Source: an uncultured archaeon
GTDB lineage: Archaea > Asgardarchaeota > Lokiarchaeia > Sigyniarchaeales > SOKP01
DNA: 37,340 nt
Assembly (NCBI GenBank): GCA_964508365.1
Contig: CAZDTP010000021.1
Span: 13,298-50,637 of the forward strand
Direction of reading: 5' to 3'
The translations under genes and the position numbers were made by a program. Below the pieces are notes generated by a model, which saw only the letters and a list, made by a program, of their open reading frames with translations, ran no database searches and was not told the DNA's origin. Each line of letters begins with the position of its first letter. Position 1 is the first letter of the stretch. This document shows positions 28,339 through 36,414 of the stretch, piece after piece.

Positions 28339-29358
28339 ATGGCACATGAAGAATACAGGAATTTTTCAAAAAAGACAGAATCTCTTGTAAAGCCTAAAGA
28401 TGTGACTGCCATTAGCTTTTTGAGCAGTTTCAGTAAATCTCTTCCTAAAAAAACACAACATAAATTTACGCAGAGCGGCAAGAAAAGAATTCCTTATATG
28501 GGATTCATAGTAGATCCCTATTGTTTATTTCTATCTTTTAAGATAAAAAATACTTCAGCAGCGCAAGAGATGCTCCCCGATGGATATGAACTAGCAGAAG
28601 CCTCAATCTTCAAGAACGATGCAAAGTTTCCCATGGCAATTGCAAGCGTATTTACCGCTCGAACATCAGGATTTATAGGCATGCGAATCGAGTTTTATAT
28701 TATTGCTCGCAACAAAGAAACTGGGTTGTTATCTTGGATCATTTGTGATTATGAAACGAATACTAACAGCTATGACCCAAAGAATGGATTTTGTGGTTAC
28801 ACTTGTGATCCAGCCGTGTTTACAACCACATACTTTGGGGAGTTACTGGTTGATATTAAGAATCACACCAATAATAAAGAATTCATTGTATCGGTTGACT
28901 TAGAAAAAGGTGATTCAAGGGAATTGGAAGAATCTCTCTGGATTGAAGGAAATCTTATTGTCGATTATGGAGGCGAGCTAAAAAATGATTTTTCAGAGCC
29001 TTTCAGCCTGCTTTTTGACCCAGATATGGTGAAAGAAGCGGTAAACATACCTCTAGAACACATTTCACTCAAGGCAAACTCCTATCTGGGTAATATTATT
29101 GATCCTGTTAAGCCAGTAAACGCAGTTATCTTTCCTTATAGTCAGCACTTCATTATTAAGCAAGATCTGGAAAAGTATGCGGTTAAAAACCAAAAGGATT
29201 TAGATCTTCAAATTAAGTCTTTCCTTAGCAGAACTGGATTTAAAACCATGTCAGGTGATGATATAAAAAAACCCATTTATGGAATGGTCTTAATTTCTTA
29301 CCTAGTACTTATCAGTATAATTGTATATTTACTAATAAGACTTTATTTATTTGGGTAA
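28339..29358 (+). CDS. Hypothetical protein with C-terminal TM helix (paralog B of the upstream gene)
   Basis: Shared motifs along the full length, including FPxxQHxI and KT+S before the TM helix. Confidence 0.75.
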   Translation: MAHEEYRNFSKKTESLVKPKDVTAISFLSSFSKSLPKKTQHKFTQSGKKRIPYMGFIVDPYCLFLSFKIKNTSAAQEMLPDGYELAEASIFKNDAKFPMAIASVFTARTSGFIGMRIEFYIIARNKETGLLSWIICDYETNTNSYDPKNGFCGYTCDPAVFTTTYFGELLVDIKNHTNNKEFIVSVDLEKGDSRELEESLWIEGNLIVDYGGELKNDFSEPFSLLFDPDMVKEAVNIPLEHISLKANSYLGNIIDPVKPVNAVIFPYSQHFIIKQDLEKYAVKNQKDLDLQIKSFLSRTGFKTMSGDDIKKPIYGMVLISYLVLISIIVYLLIRLYLFG

Positions 29359-29720
29359 AAACCTCATTTTTTATTTTTCATTAAATTCTTGGCACTATTC
29401 TATATGAAAAAAAAGTCGTATGTGCATTAGAAAGTGCTTTATGAACCACGAATAGGTTTATTAAGGAAAATTAATAACATCAATCTACTTAAATAAATTA
29501 AGGTAATAGCTCGTATTATTATTAAATAGTAGTGATATAAAATCAGAAAGCAAAATCTAACGGTGAAAAATCCTGTCAGAAAATAAAGAGTGAGAATTGG
29601 AACGCTTTTTGGCAACGCTTTAAATAAATTTAAATCACCTAATAAACTTAAACTCCTACCTGCTTAAAATTCATAAATACAATTAGGAAAATTTATGATT
29701 TATAAAATGTTATAAGACAC

Positions 29721-30176
29721 ATGGTAGAACTGGATCAAATCTATAAGGTGCATGAAAATTTATATATCGGTGCATATTGGCCAAGGTTAAACTTTGAAAA
29801 ATTTAAAGACATAGGTATTACTGCTATTGTGAATTTAATGGAAGAAAATTACTATGATCCTACAGATCAAGGATTTAATTACCTTTTTAAAGGATTCCCC
29901 GACGACTGGTACCCTCCGCATAGCTACATTTCTGAGATTTTAGAATTTATAGATAATAACATTGAACATGGAAAGGTTTTAGTTCATTGCGCAATGGGTA
30001 TTTCCAGAAGTGGAGGGATTATTGTAGCTTGGTTATTAAAGAATAATCCAAAATGGAGTTGGAGTGATGCGATGAATTATGTAAATAAATCAAGACTGAT
30101 ATTTCCTGCCATCGAAATAAAAGAGTCCGTACTCGATTATTTTGAGTCAATACAAGGATATAGAAGAGGAAAGTGA
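29721..30176 (+). CDS. Dual-specificity protein phosphatase family protein
   Basis: VLVHCAMGISRS (HCxxGxxRS) P-loop; acidic loop GFPDD; 151 aa. Confidence 0.92.
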   Translation: MVELDQIYKVHENLYIGAYWPRLNFEKFKDIGITAIVNLMEENYYDPTDQGFNYLFKGFPDDWYPPHSYISEILEFIDNNIEHGKVLVHCAMGISRSGGIIVAWLLKNNPKWSWSDAMNYVNKSRLIFPAIEIKESVLDYFESIQGYRRGK

Positions 30177-30331
30177 GATTTTTCAAACTCTATTTTAATT
30201 CTTTCAACTTTAAAATTTATCTGCTTATTTAATTGTTTTTCTTTTCCTTAAATTTTTATTGGTATTCTAAGGTAATCAAAGTAATATTTACCCAATAATT
30301 AGATTAAATAAAGTTTTACGAGTATTATATT

Positions 30332-30625
30332 TTGCCACATCGAAATAGTGTAAAAAACGAAAGAATATCATTTTATTTCGATATAATTTCAGGAACCGTT
30401 ATATCATTAGTCTCGATATTTTGCATTATTTTCGTCTCTATAACGGAGGGTATTAAAAATTTTTCAATTTTCTATGTGCTAGGACTAGGATTTTGGATAG
30501 GTTGGTTAGGATTATCAATATTTCTTATAATAGTCGGCATTAAATCCTACTACAACGAAAAACATTTCAGATTAACCGGTGAACAAAAAAAAGCGAGAAA
30601 ATTAAAAGCCCCAATAGTAAGCTAG
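30332..30625 (+). CDS. Small two-TM membrane protein
   Basis: Two hydrophobic helices and a basic C-tail; TTG start uncertain. Confidence 0.6.
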   Translation: MPHRNSVKNERISFYFDIISGTVISLVSIFCIIFVSITEGIKNFSIFYVLGLGFWIGWLGLSIFLIIVGIKSYYNEKHFRLTGEQKKARKLKAPIVS

Positions 30626-30764
30626 CTCATAAGATTAAAGTACTAATTCTAAACAACTTTAATAAATTGACCTTTTCAGTTTTTAACATAAATATTTAAG
30701 ATCAGCCTTAGATCATTTAATAAAAATTATAGTTCAATAAAGAGAAGAAAAAGGAGAAATTAAA

Positions 30765-31100
30765 ATGCCTGAGTTTGAAGAAAATGTTTTAAGCTTGCTC
30801 AAAAAAATAGATGAAAAACTTGATAGACTACTTGGTGCTAAAGGATTTGAAACCGATTCGAAGCCTTCAATTGCTCAAAAAAAAGAAGTATATGTTAAAC
30901 CGTCTGCTGTAGTTGAAAAAGAGGAGGAAGAGGAAAAAGCGAAAATAAATCCACCCGTTGAAGGAAGAAGAGTTTGTCCTGCATGTGGAGGAATAGCTTT
31001 CAACACAGAAGAAGATAAATCTCAAATATTATTTCAACAAGGTGGAATGAAAATTTTCGCAAAACGGTATATTTGTAGAAATTGTGGAACGGAAGCTTAA
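30765..31100 (+). CDS. Small protein: short coiled coil, charged linker, C-terminal Zn ribbon
   Basis: AAGGAG SD; VLSLLKKIDEKLDRLL; CPAC...CRNC. Confidence 0.85.
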   Translation: MPEFEENVLSLLKKIDEKLDRLLGAKGFETDSKPSIAQKKEVYVKPSAVVEKEEEEEKAKINPPVEGRRVCPACGGIAFNTEEDKSQILFQQGGMKIFAKRYICRNCGTEA

Positions 31101-31329
31101 ATCAGAACGACTAAAATGTTTTTTTAAAAACACATCCATAGAAGCTTTGTAAATAACGATGGATTTAAAGTGATTAGGAAATCATTATATCCAAAGACAC
31201 ATAAAAAAATGTTGAAGTAACTCAATATTATACTTACAGTTTTAACTATGCAAATCCAATTGGAAATTGCTTGATTACGATAATAAAATTTAATTTTAAT
31301 CTTACTTTTCTCTTCGTAGTGAAATTTTT

Positions 31330-31968
31330 ATGGCTAACGAAGAAATTATTATCCAAATTATGTTTATTACTCTCGCAATGATTGGTTTAGGCGAGATTCT
31401 CAATAGGATTATGGGTTTAAACATGGACTCTGCAAAAGAAATAAGAGAAAAATCAAAAAACCTACAAGAACGAATGAAAACCGCTAGACTTACAGGGAAT
31501 TCTCAAGACATGTTTGAACTCCAACAAGAATCAGTCGCATTGACGAAATTAATGATGAAAAAGCAGATGATCCCCTCATGCGTAAGATGTTTTATTTTTA
31601 TAGGAATATTTGCTTTGATAGGCGCTATTTACGCAGCTTACGCAGAAAATTTGCTTCCGTTTCCAATACTGATATTCGGTTCTGGTTGGTTTGCTGTATA
31701 CTTCTTGTTCTCTCTCAGCTTTAGTCTTATCCTCTATGGAATTAAAAGACTTTATAGGAAACTAACTGGTAAAGAAGACAAGCGAAAAAAGGCATCAAAA
31801 GAAATTTTAGGCATGCTTTCGCCGGGATCAGGATATCAGTCGGGTAATATCCAGTTAACAAGATCAATTTCTAATAGACCCCCGCGAGATAATGTTGATG
31901 ATGGTAAGCAAGAGGATAGTGATAGACCACCTAAAAGCGATTCATGGAAAGATCGAATACAAAAATAA
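31330..31968 (+). CDS. EMC3/TMCO1 (DUF106, Oxa1 superfamily) membrane protein
   Basis: TM1, cytosolic coiled-coil hairpin (KEIREKSKNLQERMKTAR...ELQQE...MMKKQMIP), further TMs, GSGW.AVYFLFSL. Confidence 0.75.
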   Translation: MANEEIIIQIMFITLAMIGLGEILNRIMGLNMDSAKEIREKSKNLQERMKTARLTGNSQDMFELQQESVALTKLMMKKQMIPSCVRCFIFIGIFALIGAIYAAYAENLLPFPILIFGSGWFAVYFLFSLSFSLILYGIKRLYRKLTGKEDKRKKASKEILGMLSPGSGYQSGNIQLTRSISNRPPRDNVDDGKQEDSDRPPKSDSWKDRIQK

Positions 31969-32000
31969 TTACATCAAAAACCAAGTTCATCTGATTAAAA

Positions 32001-32480
32001 ATGACAGAAAAAAACATTATTAAGAAACAGATGACTCTTTATTTTATTTTTGCAGTTTGTATGATCCTCTTAAATTACATTATACAAAAAATTAATCAAC
32101 TTGCTATTTCTCCCTATTTATGTTCTGTGTTCGGAGGAAATGATTTTATTCAAGTTCTATATTGTTCTACAAACCCTATAAATATGCCTGTACTAATAGG
32201 TTCTATCGTAGCAACCGGAATAACTTATATCATTAAGTTTTTCTTAGATAAGTACCTAGTCTTCAAAAAAACCAGTCTAAAGATCAAAGAGACTTCAGAA
32301 GAGTTTTCCAAATACTTTGGATTTGCGATTTTAACTACGATTGAAAATATTGGAATCCAATTTATCTTAACCAACGTATTTAATGCACCTTTAGAGGTAA
32401 GCGTTATCATCGCATTGTCTATTGGTTATGTATCTAAATTCTTTTTAGATAGAAAATATGTGTTCACCAAAGAATACTGA
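32001..32480 (+). CDS. GtrA family membrane protein
   Basis: 4 TM; repeated KFFLDK/RKYVF motif and FSKYFGFA. Confidence 0.8.
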   Translation: MTEKNIIKKQMTLYFIFAVCMILLNYIIQKINQLAISPYLCSVFGGNDFIQVLYCSTNPINMPVLIGSIVATGITYIIKFFLDKYLVFKKTSLKIKETSEEFSKYFGFAILTTIENIGIQFILTNVFNAPLEVSVIIALSIGYVSKFFLDRKYVFTKEY

Positions 32481-32547
32481 GTTTTCTTCTTCTTTTCAAT
32501 TTTACTCCATTAATTTTTAATACTATTAATTTATTATTTTTAATATT

Positions 32548-33828
32548 ATGTCACAAGAACAGCGGGATCAAAAAGAAGAAGACACATCGATGGTAGATGC
32601 ATTAAGTTCACTTGGTTGGATTGAAGAGAAAGAGGAAGAAGAAGGACTCCCTGTTTCTGAAGTAGAATCTTTAAAAAAACAACTAAATCTCTTTCTAGAA
32701 CAGAACAGACAACTAACTGAAGAAATCGCTAATCTCAGAGAAGATAATGAAAGTCTTAAAACAATAATAGATTCTTTTCAACACAAGAAGGAAAAGACCA
32801 TTCAATTATCAAAAGAAAATAATGATGCAATTGATAATTTATTGCACACAATTGTTCAAAAGGATGAGTTAATAAAAGATCTCGAATCAAAAATTGATTT
32901 CTTAAATGAAACTCAAGTAAATGATTCAGATATTAGTATATCAATTCAAAATAAAGAAAAGGAAATTGAAGCGTTAAAAACTCAGCTAGAGGATAAAAAT
33001 CATATAGTTTTAGAATTCAAAACTTCGAACCAAGAAAAAAATCAAGTGATCCAGAACCAATCTATAGAGCTTGAGAGATTAAATAAAATAGTTACAGATC
33101 AAACTCAAAAAATTCGATCTGTATCATCTGACATAGAGACGCTAAGATCAGACCAACAAACGAACAAAGGAATAACTGAGAAATTGGATGAAAAAGAAAA
33201 CAAGATAAAAGAATTAATGGAACAAATTCAATATTTAGAGAATGATACAATCCAAAAATCAAAATTCGAGAAGCAACAGATATTACTTGAAAAAAAAGAT
33301 GAGATAATCACTGAAAAAGAGAAAGAAATTTTCGATCTTGAAAACACACAACAAGCAGCAAACCAATCAATAAAAGACTTACAGCAGAAGTTAGAAACTT
33401 TTAGCCTTGTAAAAAAAGACATAGAAAAAAAGGAAGAACGCATCAAAAACTTGGTTTTAGAAATTGAGAAATTAACTCAAAAAAACATAACGAATGAAGA
33501 GTTTATTAACCAAATTCAAGCTCGATTGGAAGAATCTCAAGAAAAATCTGGTAATATAACTGGAAAATTTGAATTAGAAATAATGAATTTAAGAAATTTT
33601 AACGACGAGCAAATAGCAGAAATCAAAATGTTAAGAGAAATTGGTAATGATCTGAAAAATAAACTACAAGAATCTGAACAAATTGAAGATCGGATTCTTA
33701 CGGAAATGCAAAATGTTAAGGACGAGAAACTCAAACTAGAGTCTGCACTTGATAACAAAGAGAAGGAACTAATCGAGTTAAAGAAAAAAATTAAAATTAT
33801 GCGGAGAGATATAAAGTCATCATCATAA
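32548..33828 (+). CDS. Long coiled-coil protein
   Basis: 426 aa, E/K/Q/L/I-rich heptads almost throughout; no TM or globular domain recognised. Confidence 0.85.
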   Translation: MSQEQRDQKEEDTSMVDALSSLGWIEEKEEEEGLPVSEVESLKKQLNLFLEQNRQLTEEIANLREDNESLKTIIDSFQHKKEKTIQLSKENNDAIDNLLHTIVQKDELIKDLESKIDFLNETQVNDSDISISIQNKEKEIEALKTQLEDKNHIVLEFKTSNQEKNQVIQNQSIELERLNKIVTDQTQKIRSVSSDIETLRSDQQTNKGITEKLDEKENKIKELMEQIQYLENDTIQKSKFEKQQILLEKKDEIITEKEKEIFDLENTQQAANQSIKDLQQKLETFSLVKKDIEKKEERIKNLVLEIEKLTQKNITNEEFINQIQARLEESQEKSGNITGKFELEIMNLRNFNDEQIAEIKMLREIGNDLKNKLQESEQIEDRILTEMQNVKDEKLKLESALDNKEKELIELKKKIKIMRRDIKSSS

Positions 33829-33892
33829 TCTTTAGTGTTAGCTTTATTTTAAAAAAAGATAAAAAATATTTGTTTAATTTTTATTTCGGGGG

Positions 33893-34909
33893 TTATTTCT
33901 CCCTCCATTCGATACCACATTGGCCACACTTGTACTTTTTCCCGTATACGCGGGGGTAATCTAATATAATATTGCTTTTATCAATACTTTCGTGGATCAT
34001 AAGTTTGTCTTCGATATTACACTTAGGGCATCTTCTACGGCCATCAGATTTTTCGATGGTTAAGATTGAATCGTCCTTAAAACCGGGGATTCCTGGACCT
34101 GCACTTGAAGCACTTGATTCCTTAAGGTGAGCAATATCTGCTATAACTTCATCAGCAATTTCCTCTCTTACCTCTGATTTAAATTCAGGTTGGATTCCCA
34201 TAGCTTTTCTATCAGCTTCAGTTTCAGGTTCTAATGGGGATTCAGCTCTTAATTGAACTGCATCTGATTCTTTATAATCTTTTCCACGATCTAATGCTGC
34301 TAAAAATTCAGCGTCGTCTCCTTCTTCGAAGATTTGCTCATTTTGAGCTCCTGCTCTTTCTGAATCAATATTACGTGCCCATTGACCAGCTTTGACTTTT
34401 TCTTTAACATTGCAAGTTTCTCCTTGCCATATATATACTTTATTACCTAAATCAGCCACGAAACAATCTTCAGAATCTAACGAGTTTTTGGAAAAAGGAA
34501 CTTGAATCATTTTCATGGAATTAATACCTTCAAATTCTTCGGCTGAAACACGGTAAAGAATGTTGCTCCACTCTTCAAATCCCGCCCAATCTCCTGTAGA
34601 TACATCTTTTAACAGTGTCTTTGCGTAATTCTTTTCAACAACCTTCATCGCGCCCATCGAATTAATAGTTTTCATGAAATTGGGGGTTTCTTGCTTTTCA
34701 TCAACCGTAATAATTTTAGCTGCCCCACCTCTTTGCTGGTCTAAAGTTCGGGCTTGAGCTGCTCCCGCTGTCTTTTCATCTACGCTACATTTACTCCCAA
34801 TCCATACATATATTGTATTACCATCGTCAAGAACGTAAACGTCTCCTGTAGAAAATATGGGTTTTGAAATCTCTTTCAGGTTACCTTGTTCAACTAAAAA
34901 TAGTTTCAT
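33893..34909 (-). CDS. Two-domain gelsolin-like protein with C-terminal Zn ribbon
   Basis: Repeat 1 FSTGDVYVLD...YVWIGSKCSVDEK; repeat 2 LDSEDCFVAD...YIWQGETCNVKEK; C-terminal CPKC...CGQC; GAGG SD. Confidence 0.92.
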   Translation of the reverse strand: MKLFLVEQGNLKEISKPIFSTGDVYVLDDGNTIYVWIGSKCSVDEKTAGAAQARTLDQQRGGAAKIITVDEKQETPNFMKTINSMGAMKVVEKNYAKTLLKDVSTGDWAGFEEWSNILYRVSAEEFEGINSMKMIQVPFSKNSLDSEDCFVADLGNKVYIWQGETCNVKEKVKAGQWARNIDSERAGAQNEQIFEEGDDAEFLAALDRGKDYKESDAVQLRAESPLEPETEADRKAMGIQPEFKSEVREEIADEVIADIAHLKESSASSAGPGIPGFKDDSILTIEKSDGRRRCPKCNIEDKLMIHESIDKSNIILDYPRVYGKKYKCGQCGIEWREK

Positions 34910-35034
34910 AAAACATTCCTCAAATAGAAATTTTTTTAGAAATCTTTATATTAGATATAAACTCAAGCTTTTTAATTTATTGCAAAAACAAATAAAAGCA
35001 AATGGGGTAATATATAGAAAATATCAGAGTTAAA

Positions 35035-36414
35035 TTAAAAATCTCTTAATGCGTGATCAATTCTACTTACGAACTCTGCAATCTTTCTTAAATCGATTGA
35101 GCAGTAAGCGATTCTAATCCCATTAATGTTATCATGTTGTTTTTCAATAGGAATTACGCCAACTTTATATTTTTTTAATAGATGATCCGCAAAGTCATTC
35201 GCTTTGATTACTTCTGGGTTTAAATTAACAAATATAAAGAAACCCCCAGCGTTTGAGTCTACCGATATGTTTTCGTTTTTTATTTTCCTAAACTCAGCAT
35301 TGATTTTCTCATATCTCTCTTTAAGGAGATGCTTAACTTTTTCTCGTTTTTGTATCAAGCCATCCATTCCAATATCGTCAAAGAGCTTAAGAGTTAGACT
35401 TTGATAAAAATGATTAGAGTTTGAGATCGTAGTCCTAAGTAAGCCAGAAAGTTTATTATCGATTTCAGCTTTCAAAGTTGTTAATTCTTGCGCATTTTTA
35501 ACCCAGTGAGGTTTTAATCCAATTGTAATGAATCCAATGCGCCCTCCATAAAGTAATAGCTCTTTAGTAATTCCATCTAACTTAATTGGAATTATGTCCT
35601 CCTCTAGTTCGTGCAATGCGTAAAAAATCGAGCGATTAATTACTTCCTTAGAATAAACATAGGGTTCGTAAGCGTCGTCTACTAAAATTATGATCGGTTT
35701 AGAAATAGTTTTTTGTGCTTCTATTAAAGCATTTAGTATCTCTGCTAATTCTTCCTGATTAGGGATATAACCCGTAGGATTATTAGGAAATCCTAAAATA
35801 AGAATAATTTTTTCTTGAACCTTTGATATTTCGTAAATAGCATTTTTCATTCCATTGATGTTGAAATTTTCACCTGAAAAAAAATCAAACGATTTAATTC
35901 TGGCCCCGATTAATTTCTCAACGATGTTATCGTAATTTCCCCATCTCTTATTAGGTGATATAATAAAATCTCCCTGGTTTAGGAACAGTGAACAGCAAAA
36001 AAATATCCCGTTTGTTAACCCCGCAGTAACTACAGGTGTAGTAACAAAATTCTCAAGTTTATTTAGCTTATCTTGTTCAAAATCTATGTTATAACAAGAT
36101 TTTTTGATTATCCAATTTTTCCAAGAATTTTTTAAATCCTCAAGCCCAGAAATCTGAGGATATGGTACAACTTCGTTCACATTTAACTTAGTATAATTCT
36201 TTATATCTTCTAGATACAACGGGACCCATTCGGGAGTTCCTCCCTCAATAAAATCTTCCTCGAAGCCATAAGCAGATCCGAGAGTACCATTAATTTCGGC
36301 TTCTTTTTTTGCTCTTCCAGACCAATGAAAGACTCCCTGAGGCAAATAAATGCGTTTTCCTTGTTCTGATAAGGCATTATAGAGAGGAGTTTTTTTTATC
36401 ATTTTAAACTCCAT
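35035..36414 (-). CDS. Class I/II PLP-dependent aminotransferase
   Basis: GFPNNPTGY, VDDAYEPY, DGITKE PLP-lysine, GGRIGF, GIRIAYCS. Confidence 0.9.
   Translation of the reverse strand: MEFKMIKKTPLYNALSEQGKRIYLPQGVFHWSGRAKKEAEINGTLGSAYGFEEDFIEGGTPEWVPLYLEDIKNYTKLNVNEVVPYPQISGLEDLKNSWKNWIIKKSCYNIDFEQDKLNKLENFVTTPVVTAGLTNGIFFCCSLFLNQGDFIISPNKRWGNYDNIVEKLIGARIKSFDFFSGENFNINGMKNAIYEISKVQEKIILILGFPNNPTGYIPNQEELAEILNALIEAQKTISKPIIILVDDAYEPYVYSKEVINRSIFYALHELEEDIIPIKLDGITKELLLYGGRIGFITIGLKPHWVKNAQELTTLKAEIDNKLSGLLRTTISNSNHFYQSLTLKLFDDIGMDGLIQKREKVKHLLKERYEKINAEFRKIKNENISVDSNAGGFFIFVNLNPEVIKANDFADHLLKKYKVGVIPIEKQHDNINGIRIAYCSIDLRKIAEFVSRIDHALRDF

Follow-up and report, generated by a model that had tools for sequence, protein, structure and literature searches.

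The 37,340-nucleotide stretch analysed here (the window, which is C21:13298-50637 of genome G000 and derives from salt-marsh metagenomes) carries the genes for a two-domain gelsolin and for a protein of 111 amino acids (aa) whose C-termini resemble each other, which raises the question of what this common tail is and what it does on both proteins. We found that the tails belong to a sharply defined, portable, terminal module family. Judged by sequence, the module is the 'Zn domain' of Lokiarchaeal gelsolins that was published in 2022 (PMC9433394) and so is already known. We think it rather probable that it is a docking tag, bringing its carriers to one common site in the Lokiactin network. The two genes and their parts are as follows, with structures predicted by AlphaFold2 (AF2) and profile scores from a hidden Markov model (HMM).

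33893-34909, minus strand: two-domain gelsolin with linker and Zn domain, 338 aa (open reading frame (ORF) and Pfam Gelsolin)
34265-34909, minus strand: gelsolin domains 1 and 2, about residues 1-215 (Pfam PF00626 and PF25480; boundary approximate)
34046-34264, minus strand: acidic low-complexity linker of the gelsolin, about residues 216-288 (sequence composition)
33896-34045, minus strand: Zn domain of the gelsolin, residues 289-338, predicted C4 zinc ribbon with a long beta-hairpin (match to 7WHG_G and AF2)
30765-31100, plus strand: 111-aa Zn-domain carrier with a helix, a disordered linker and a zinc ribbon (ORF)
30771-30836, plus strand: conserved N-terminal amphipathic helix of the 111-aa protein, residues 3-24, consensus MSEFE..vL.LL..I..KLD..L (orthologue alignments and AF2)
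30960-31097, plus strand: Zn domain of the 111-aa protein, residues 66-111 (BLASTP to the gelsolin tail; HMM 73 bits)

The module shared by the two proteins

When residues 66-110 of the 111-aa protein were compared with residues 289-334 of the gelsolin by BLASTP, 16 of 48 positions were identical (E 2e-6 in this single comparison), and GRRxCPxC, DKSxI and K[KR]YxCxxCGxE are common to both tails, each of which is preceded by a low-complexity or acidic linker. A search of genome G000 with the gelsolin tail found eight places, and an HMM of the module retrieved eight ORFs at 71-85 bits, the next matches being generic zinc ribbons at no more than 15 bits; an HMM built from 148 sequences left the same gap of more than 50 bits between the eight carriers and the generic ribbons. 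Among these 148 diverse members C, D, C and C (Cys 1, 3 and 4) are invariant, and P, C (Cys 2), Y and K are at least 90% conserved, the Y being the hairpin Tyr that corresponds to Y40 of the model and Y322 of the gelsolin and is a Phe in the 111-aa protein. The family has the signature (Cys-X-X-Cys)2 and is predicted to bind zinc, and all eight genomic modules are basic, with isoelectric points (pI) of 8.5-10.0. In 264 of 266 collected carriers the module ends no more than 6 residues from the C-terminus, and two modules, of which one is terminal, are present in a few of the 266.

A chance resemblance of two generic CxxC...CxxC ribbons might be argued from the abundance of zinc ribbons and from the ease with which four Cys align by themselves, but this explanation is refuted by the pairwise E-value, by the wide gap that sets the eight paralogues apart and by conservation at an invariant position other than Cys, leaving it practically no chance of being right. 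The first-pass annotation of this DNA had proposed that the two C-termini share a module, that the likeness goes well beyond the four Cys and that a charged, flexible linker comes before it. All of this was borne out, the last by the composition of the linkers and by an AF2 confidence (predicted local distance difference test, pLDDT) below 50 for residues 26-55 of the 111-aa protein; the HMM retrieved a specific family in which the DK and Y.K positions are kept, not generic ribbons. In a Pfam scan of both proteins none of the zinc-ribbon families reached its cut-off on the two tails, and the module has no sequence match to a known nucleic-acid-binding family. PF24161, found on most coiled-coil carriers, was set aside as the generic coiled coil CCDC39, which does not overlap the ribbon.

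A profile of the eight genomic copies matches residues 283-333 of 7WHG_G ('Lokiarchaeota gelsolin (2DGel)') with E 1.2e-18 and 69.5 bits. In the description by Akil et al. (2022; Commun Biol 5:890, PMC9433394), Loki2DGel has a pair of gelsolin domains and a 69-aa linker, followed by a 'Zn' domain with the potential to bind zinc. These authors reported the Zn domain also on unrelated multi-domain proteins, where it is exclusively C-terminal, and as discrete proteins, and suggested some cellular feature or complex as its binding target; outside Loki it was not consistently detectable. The novelty implied by the first-pass annotation is lost with that report, in which the Zn domain already appears on Loki gelsolins, on unrelated proteins and alone. 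The discrete protein TFG08877.1 of the same study belongs to the same family as the modules of the window. The last 109 residues of Loki2DGel have no density in its crystal (7WHG; PMC9433394), and the Zn domain has therefore never been observed experimentally; our literature searches found no later study of it. 'Domain X' of 1DGelX (Akil et al. 2020) was considered as the same module and rejected, since it is predicted to be a coiled coil and not a ribbon.

The gelsolin itself fits the published picture closely. Pfam PF00626 matches two stretches of its 338 aa (E 5.6e-27, above the cut-off), and its translation reads LKDV at about residues 99-102, between both gelsolin domains; a WH2-like motif between the domains, LVDV/LKDV in Loki, is a trait of Asgard two-domain gelsolins (PMC9433394). 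Its layout is that of Loki2DGel (KKK44901.1) and MKD1-2DGel: the two gelsolin domains are followed by a charged linker, the counterpart of the 69-aa 'Link' in Loki2DGel, and by a Zn domain in which the hairpin Tyr is kept. It shows no essential difference from Loki2DGel beyond coming from another genus. It is also 43% identical, over 98% of its length, to the protein of Lokiarchaeum ossiferum (genome G170) that we mapped to GNAMCCOK_04136. It is an orthologue of Loki2DGel and of L. ossiferum B35_2DGel1. Biochemical proof of Ca-dependent actin severing or sequestering exists for the orthologues Loki2DGel and MKD1-2DGel (PMC9433394), and the gelsolin of the window is predicted to be a Ca-regulated actin-severing protein, the function having been demonstrated in these two.

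The AF2 prediction from the 148-sequence alignment (pLDDT 87.9) places strands at 23-34, 39-46 and 52-55 and corresponds to a zinc ribbon whose beta-hairpin is long. The nearest solved folds are TFIIS domain III, Rpb9/A12.2/C11, Rpp21 and the NrdR ribbon. Foldseek gave no match to the PDB at E ≤0.001; its best rows, 1TFI and 5XON_U, have a probability of 0.90-0.94 but E of 0.24-0.44 and VIA-align Z scores of 3.4-3.5, within background, and the wide VIA-align search reached at best Z 4.0 (NrdR), where Z <8 is common background. The predicted fold class, a generic zinc ribbon, would say nothing specific about function. The ribbon of TFIIS domain III, Rpb9 and archaeal TFS-RpoM (PF01096) is a three-stranded C4 ribbon with a long beta-hairpin, a fold that the module may share, and has a similar outline (CPxCG ... 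hairpin ... Y/F-x-C-x-x-CG-x-x-W), and PF01096 was not among the Pfam matches of either protein, even at E up to 1. TFIIS-C bears a catalytic acidic DE at the hairpin tip, whereas the module would have D-K there, if the pattern gives the equivalent positions correctly, and the context of the module is cytoskeletal whereas that of TFIIS-C and Rpb9 is transcriptional.

Carriers, distribution and origin

The eight carriers in genome G000 are the gelsolin, the 111-aa protein, coiled coils of 137, 278, 280 and 410 aa, a 171-aa protein whose N-terminal part has no assigned fold, and a free protein of 58 aa encoded on contig C19; in every one the module makes up the last ~50 residues and is preceded by a low-complexity linker. 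A search of 1.84 billion cluster representatives gave 523 matches at E ≤0.001 and 283 at E ≤1e-10. Besides the module, the 145 best representatives have Pfam matches to coiled-coil families only, and gelsolin carriers turn up in the 90%-identity search.

Two kinds of carrier deserve mention for their layout. The best-scoring one, of 280 aa (G000 contig C34:39658-40500, plus strand; locus L005:802-1641:+), has an N-terminal poly-proline tract at about residues 17-45, followed by a Q-rich coiled coil, an S/T/P linker and the Zn domain, a layout of poly-proline and coiled coil that recalls the profilin-recruiting regions of eukaryotic actin assembly factors. Two Zn modules, ~120-170 residues apart with the second C-terminal, are present in the metagenomic proteins P0125, P0153, P0154, P0157, P0176 and P0244 (480-586 aa), and also in P0123, P0132 and P0163.

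The 111-aa protein was described in the first-pass annotation as a coiled-coil adaptor. This is not demonstrated, because AF2 gives it a single helix (residues 3-24, pLDDT ~90), a disordered linker (26-55) and the ribbon (79-104); conservation among 44 orthologues is found in the helix and in the ribbon, together with a short acidic stretch that precedes the latter. In five of its orthologues (L041, L053, L057, L062 and L075; e.g. L062:12184-12528:-) the ORF ends right after '...KIYAK', and the remainder of the module (KKY.C..CG...) resumes past an insertion of ~27-32 nucleotides with an inverted repeat, e.g. TGTAATAT...ATATTACA. The insertion looks like a short archaeal intron of the bulge-helix-bulge type within a protein-coding gene; the copy in the window has no such insertion.

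All named source organisms of the module matches are Asgard, and a survey of 399 genomes of the phylum gave matches at E ≤1e-6 in 239. There are 3-16 copies per genome in the family to which the organism of the window belongs (134 of 134 genomes), 4-9 in other families of the order, 1-3 in other families of the class, and exactly one in many further Asgard families. Five distant Asgard genomes encode their single copy as a free protein of 48-66 aa, the named sources of free copies being Heimdallarchaeaceae, Jordarchaeaceae, Freyarchaeota and Odinarchaeota metagenome-assembled genomes (MAGs). A search of the ESM Atlas with a free mini-protein returned only borderline, unnamed clusters. Since so many other Asgard lineages have exactly one free copy, the tag probably expanded from an Asgard-wide gene for a free mini-protein, which was multiplied and fused in the Loki order. 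The free single copy in many other Asgard families extends the range given for the Zn domain by Akil et al. (2022).

The mini-protein gene of two non-Loki Asgard families that are unrelated to each other is followed directly downstream by a gene on the same strand for a coiled-coil protein of 156-180 aa (L009:1480-1632:- with L009:801-1340:-, and L010:1480-1647:+ with L010:1990-2457:+). The two neighbour proteins are homologous to each other (E 3e-7), in each of them a Pro-rich linker joins an N-terminal helix to a short basic helix at the C-terminus, and they may form a conserved partner pair with the mini-protein. They have no detectable relative in genome G000, so there is no Rosetta-stone link.

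Association of the carriers with Lokiactin

The genome of L. ossiferum, an organism of the same order, is one contig of ~6.0 Mb and also encodes eight carriers. For this species a co-immunoprecipitation (co-IP) with anti-Lokiactin versus immunoglobulin G from three cultures, cross-linked with 0.25% formaldehyde, is available (bioRxiv 10.1101/2025.11.30.690169, Suppl. Table 2, sheet 'CoIP Lokiactin'; also Nature 2026, PMC13716822). The carriers were mapped to its rows by computed mass and by genome and tag order, the computed masses lying ~0.05% above those of the table throughout, with the following result (log2 enrichment, adjusted p).

GNAMCCOK_04136, 36.6 kDa: B35_2DGel1 (UYP47817.1), orthologue of the gelsolin of the window; log2 3.97, adjusted p 0.015
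GNAMCCOK_05159, 43.78 kDa: carrier; log2 3.85, adjusted p 0.066
GNAMCCOK_03900, 6.54 kDa: free mini-protein, counterpart of the 58-aa protein of G000; log2 2.53, adjusted p 0.0039
GNAMCCOK_04980, 44.64 kDa: coiled coil, counterpart of C55, among the ~30 most abundant proteins listed; log2 2.10, adjusted p 0.0012
GNAMCCOK_00612, 36.98 kDa: carrier; log2 1.91, adjusted p 0.012
GNAMCCOK_04132, 7.37 kDa: bare module, positional counterpart of the 111-aa gene of the window; log2 1.74, adjusted p 0.029
GNAMCCOK_03553, 59.9 kDa: carrier, detected, not enriched; log2 0.57, not significant

Six of the eight carriers are enriched (log2 1.7-4.0), five of them at adjusted p <0.05, and these six fall within the top 54 of ~1500 non-contaminant rows (hypergeometric P ~4e-8). 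Two of the enriched entries, of 6.5 kDa and 7.4 kDa, are bare modules. Enrichment of proteins that consist of the module alone is the most telling hint that association with the actin network is mediated by the module itself. Like the gelsolin of the window, the 2DGel1 of L. ossiferum has the same tag and, at a distance of four locus tags and with the relative orientation preserved, a gene for a small Zn module; this neighbour is a bare module of 62 aa, in contrast to the 111-aa protein of the window with its N-terminal helix. GNAMCCOK_04133-04135, which lie between this pair, are not among the co-IP rows listed, and their equivalence to the three genes between the pair in the window (EMC3-like, GtrA and the 426-aa coiled coil) is not confirmed.

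Other rows of the same table are of interest in their own right. Several Lokiactin-enriched proteins with neighbouring locus tags occur around 2DGel1 (GNAMCCOK_04068, 04077, 04085, 04132, 04136 and 04143), and the untagged GNAMCCOK_04250 (20.6 kDa) and 04085 (56.4 kDa) are more enriched than actin itself and are candidate hubs.

The Zn domain is an Asgard-specific basic C4 ribbon of ~45-50 residues, held at the extreme C-terminus behind a flexible linker, and on the favoured reading as a docking tag the long beta-hairpin with its conserved D-K and Y-x-K-K would present the binding surface. The module itself would mediate the copurification with Lokiactin, its partner being either Lokiactin or an actin-bound hub, and the carriers recruited in this way would be the gelsolin, several coiled-coil rods, the small helix protein and the free mini-protein, with a tag that probably goes back to the free Asgard mini-protein discussed above. 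Several observations weigh against it. The isolated Zn domain of Loki2DGel did not co-sediment with rabbit F-actin, and a fusion of green fluorescent protein (GFP) with the tail, GFP-Loki-Tail, was diffuse in human cells (PMC9433394). The co-IP was done in a member of a different family of the order rather than in the organism of the window, and because of the formaldehyde cross-linking it reports proximity, not direct binding. GNAMCCOK_03553 was not enriched, the eighth carrier (L104, 39.9 kDa) was not found among the co-IP rows listed, and in the survey of 399 genomes several large Asgard groups with actin lack the mini-protein. The 'portable interaction tag' of the first-pass annotation agrees with all these data and is supported in part, since the module is C-terminal on very different proteins and since, in L. 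ossiferum, the gelsolin orthologue, coiled-coil carriers and bare modules are recovered with Lokiactin; a common partner that the module binds directly is putative.

A narrower form of the docking reading, which we hold as tentative and somewhat doubtful, is that the ribbon binds the Lokiactin filament itself and is specific for archaeal actin, so that an ancestral free actin-binding Asgard mini-protein, fused in the Loki order to gelsolin and to abundant coiled-coil rods, would have given actin cross-linkers or anchors; such specificity would explain the failure to bind rabbit F-actin. That failure also speaks for a self-association tag, whereby Zn domains bind each other and the gelsolin domains of the gelsolin drag the co-assembled carriers into the actin co-IP. 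The gelsolin is indeed the most enriched of all carriers (log2 3.97 versus 3.85 or less), most carriers, as coiled coils, would display a pair of tags, and some proteins have two tandem modules. However, the face with D-K and Y.KK is conserved even where a lineage has one free copy and lacks tagged proteins, a setting in which a purely homotypic tag would find little to connect, and we consider self-association unlikely.

Rather less likely still is a membrane or anionic-lipid anchor, in which the basic ribbon with its hairpin aromatic would tether cytoskeletal proteins to the inner membrane face. Cytoskeleton-like carriers would need membrane attachment, the pI values are high (8.5-10), Y.KK is conserved, as is the RR before the first knuckle in Loki members, and the authors of the co-IP report a bias against membrane proteins (bioRxiv 10.1101/2025.11.30.690169), so a membrane partner could escape detection. 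The module has no hydrophobic loop, though, the RR is not conserved in the free mini-proteins, and soluble bare modules were enriched with actin; GFP-Loki-Tail was diffuse in human cells, although the membranes there differ from archaeal ones. We give even less credit to a ribbon that binds nucleic acid or RNA polymerase, of the TFIIS-C, Rpb9 or NrdR kind. The module is basic, its nearest folds (TFIIS domain III, Rpb9/A12.2/C11, NrdR and Rpp21) are of this sort, and some sources automatically name members 'RNA polymerase subunit M/TFIIS' or 'S27AE', but the structural matches are not significant (Foldseek E ≥0.24; Z ≤4.0), no Pfam zinc-ribbon family reaches its cut-off, DK would replace the DE of TFIIS, and the carriers, none of which has a nucleic-acid-related domain, copurify with actin.

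Gene neighbourhood and significance

The genes around the pair in the window (28339-36414) keep a conserved order, which runs aminotransferase, gelsolin, 426-aa coiled coil, GtrA-like, EMC3/TMCO1-like, 111-aa protein, 97-aa membrane protein and phosphatase. Its further members are listed here.

35035-36414, minus strand: aminotransferase
32548-33828, plus strand: 426-aa coiled-coil protein, converging on the gelsolin
32001-32480: GtrA-like protein
31330-31968: EMC3/TMCO1-like insertase homologue
30332-30625: 97-aa membrane protein
29721-30176: dual-specificity (DSP) phosphatase

The order is conserved in 80 loci from Promethearchaeota/Promethearchaeia MAGs whose gelsolins are 67-97% identical, and the gene for the 111-aa protein was detected in 38 of the 51 syntenic loci with enough flank. 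The gelsolin and 111-aa genes lie on opposite strands with three genes between them. Their linkage is conserved, yet this is no proof of a functional unit, because all the genomes compared are kin. Among the records, L014 (DATKTW010000143.1) and several JBHL... entries are titled as other taxa (Nanopelagicaceae bacterium; Hermod-, Hod-, Thor- and Odinarchaeota), with gelsolins 73-97% identical to that of the window and unchanged synteny; they are probably mislabelled or mis-binned MAG contigs.

Metatranscriptome contigs from 4 runs of several studies, 95-99% alike, span the gelsolin gene including its Zn-coding end (records 33894-34934). They lend weak support to transcription of the gelsolin of the window, because they stem from close relatives and DNA carry-over is possible. 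The 111-aa gene is not covered by such contigs, which counts neither for nor against its expression. As for the actin of this organism, genome G000 has two close actin genes, C22:34564-35706 (minus strand; L094) and C60:19977-21011 (plus strand; L095). Over 349 aa the C60 copy, which is truncated at the contig end, matches the canonical Lokiactin of a genome of the same genus with 100% identity. The C22 copy reaches only 82% identity with it, has close counterparts in only a few genomes of the genus and is a lineage-specific second Lokiactin paralogue.

Since a paper of 2022 (PMC9433394) already covers the module and its occurrence on unrelated proteins, the value of the present work for the window lies in annotation and in refinements, namely the Asgard-wide free form, the carrier list, the synteny and the co-IP mapping, and not in discovery. 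The villin headpiece of villin and supervillin offers a comparison, as it too is a small module at the extreme C-terminus of a gelsolin-repeat protein, after a flexible linker, and is also found on other cytoskeletal proteins. In villin the headpiece provides a second actin contact. It is a three-helix bundle without metal and has no homology to the Zn domain, whose contact with actin is putative, and the comparison is one of analogy only. Should direct binding to Lokiactin be true, the Zn domain would be an analogue of the villin headpiece that is built on zinc and predates eukaryotes. The isolated 50-residue module is a simple experimental handle, and the presence of one small tag on an actin-severing protein, on abundant coiled-coil rods and on free mini-proteins, which are all recovered with Lokiactin in a cultured species, marks a largely unstudied network around archaeal actin.

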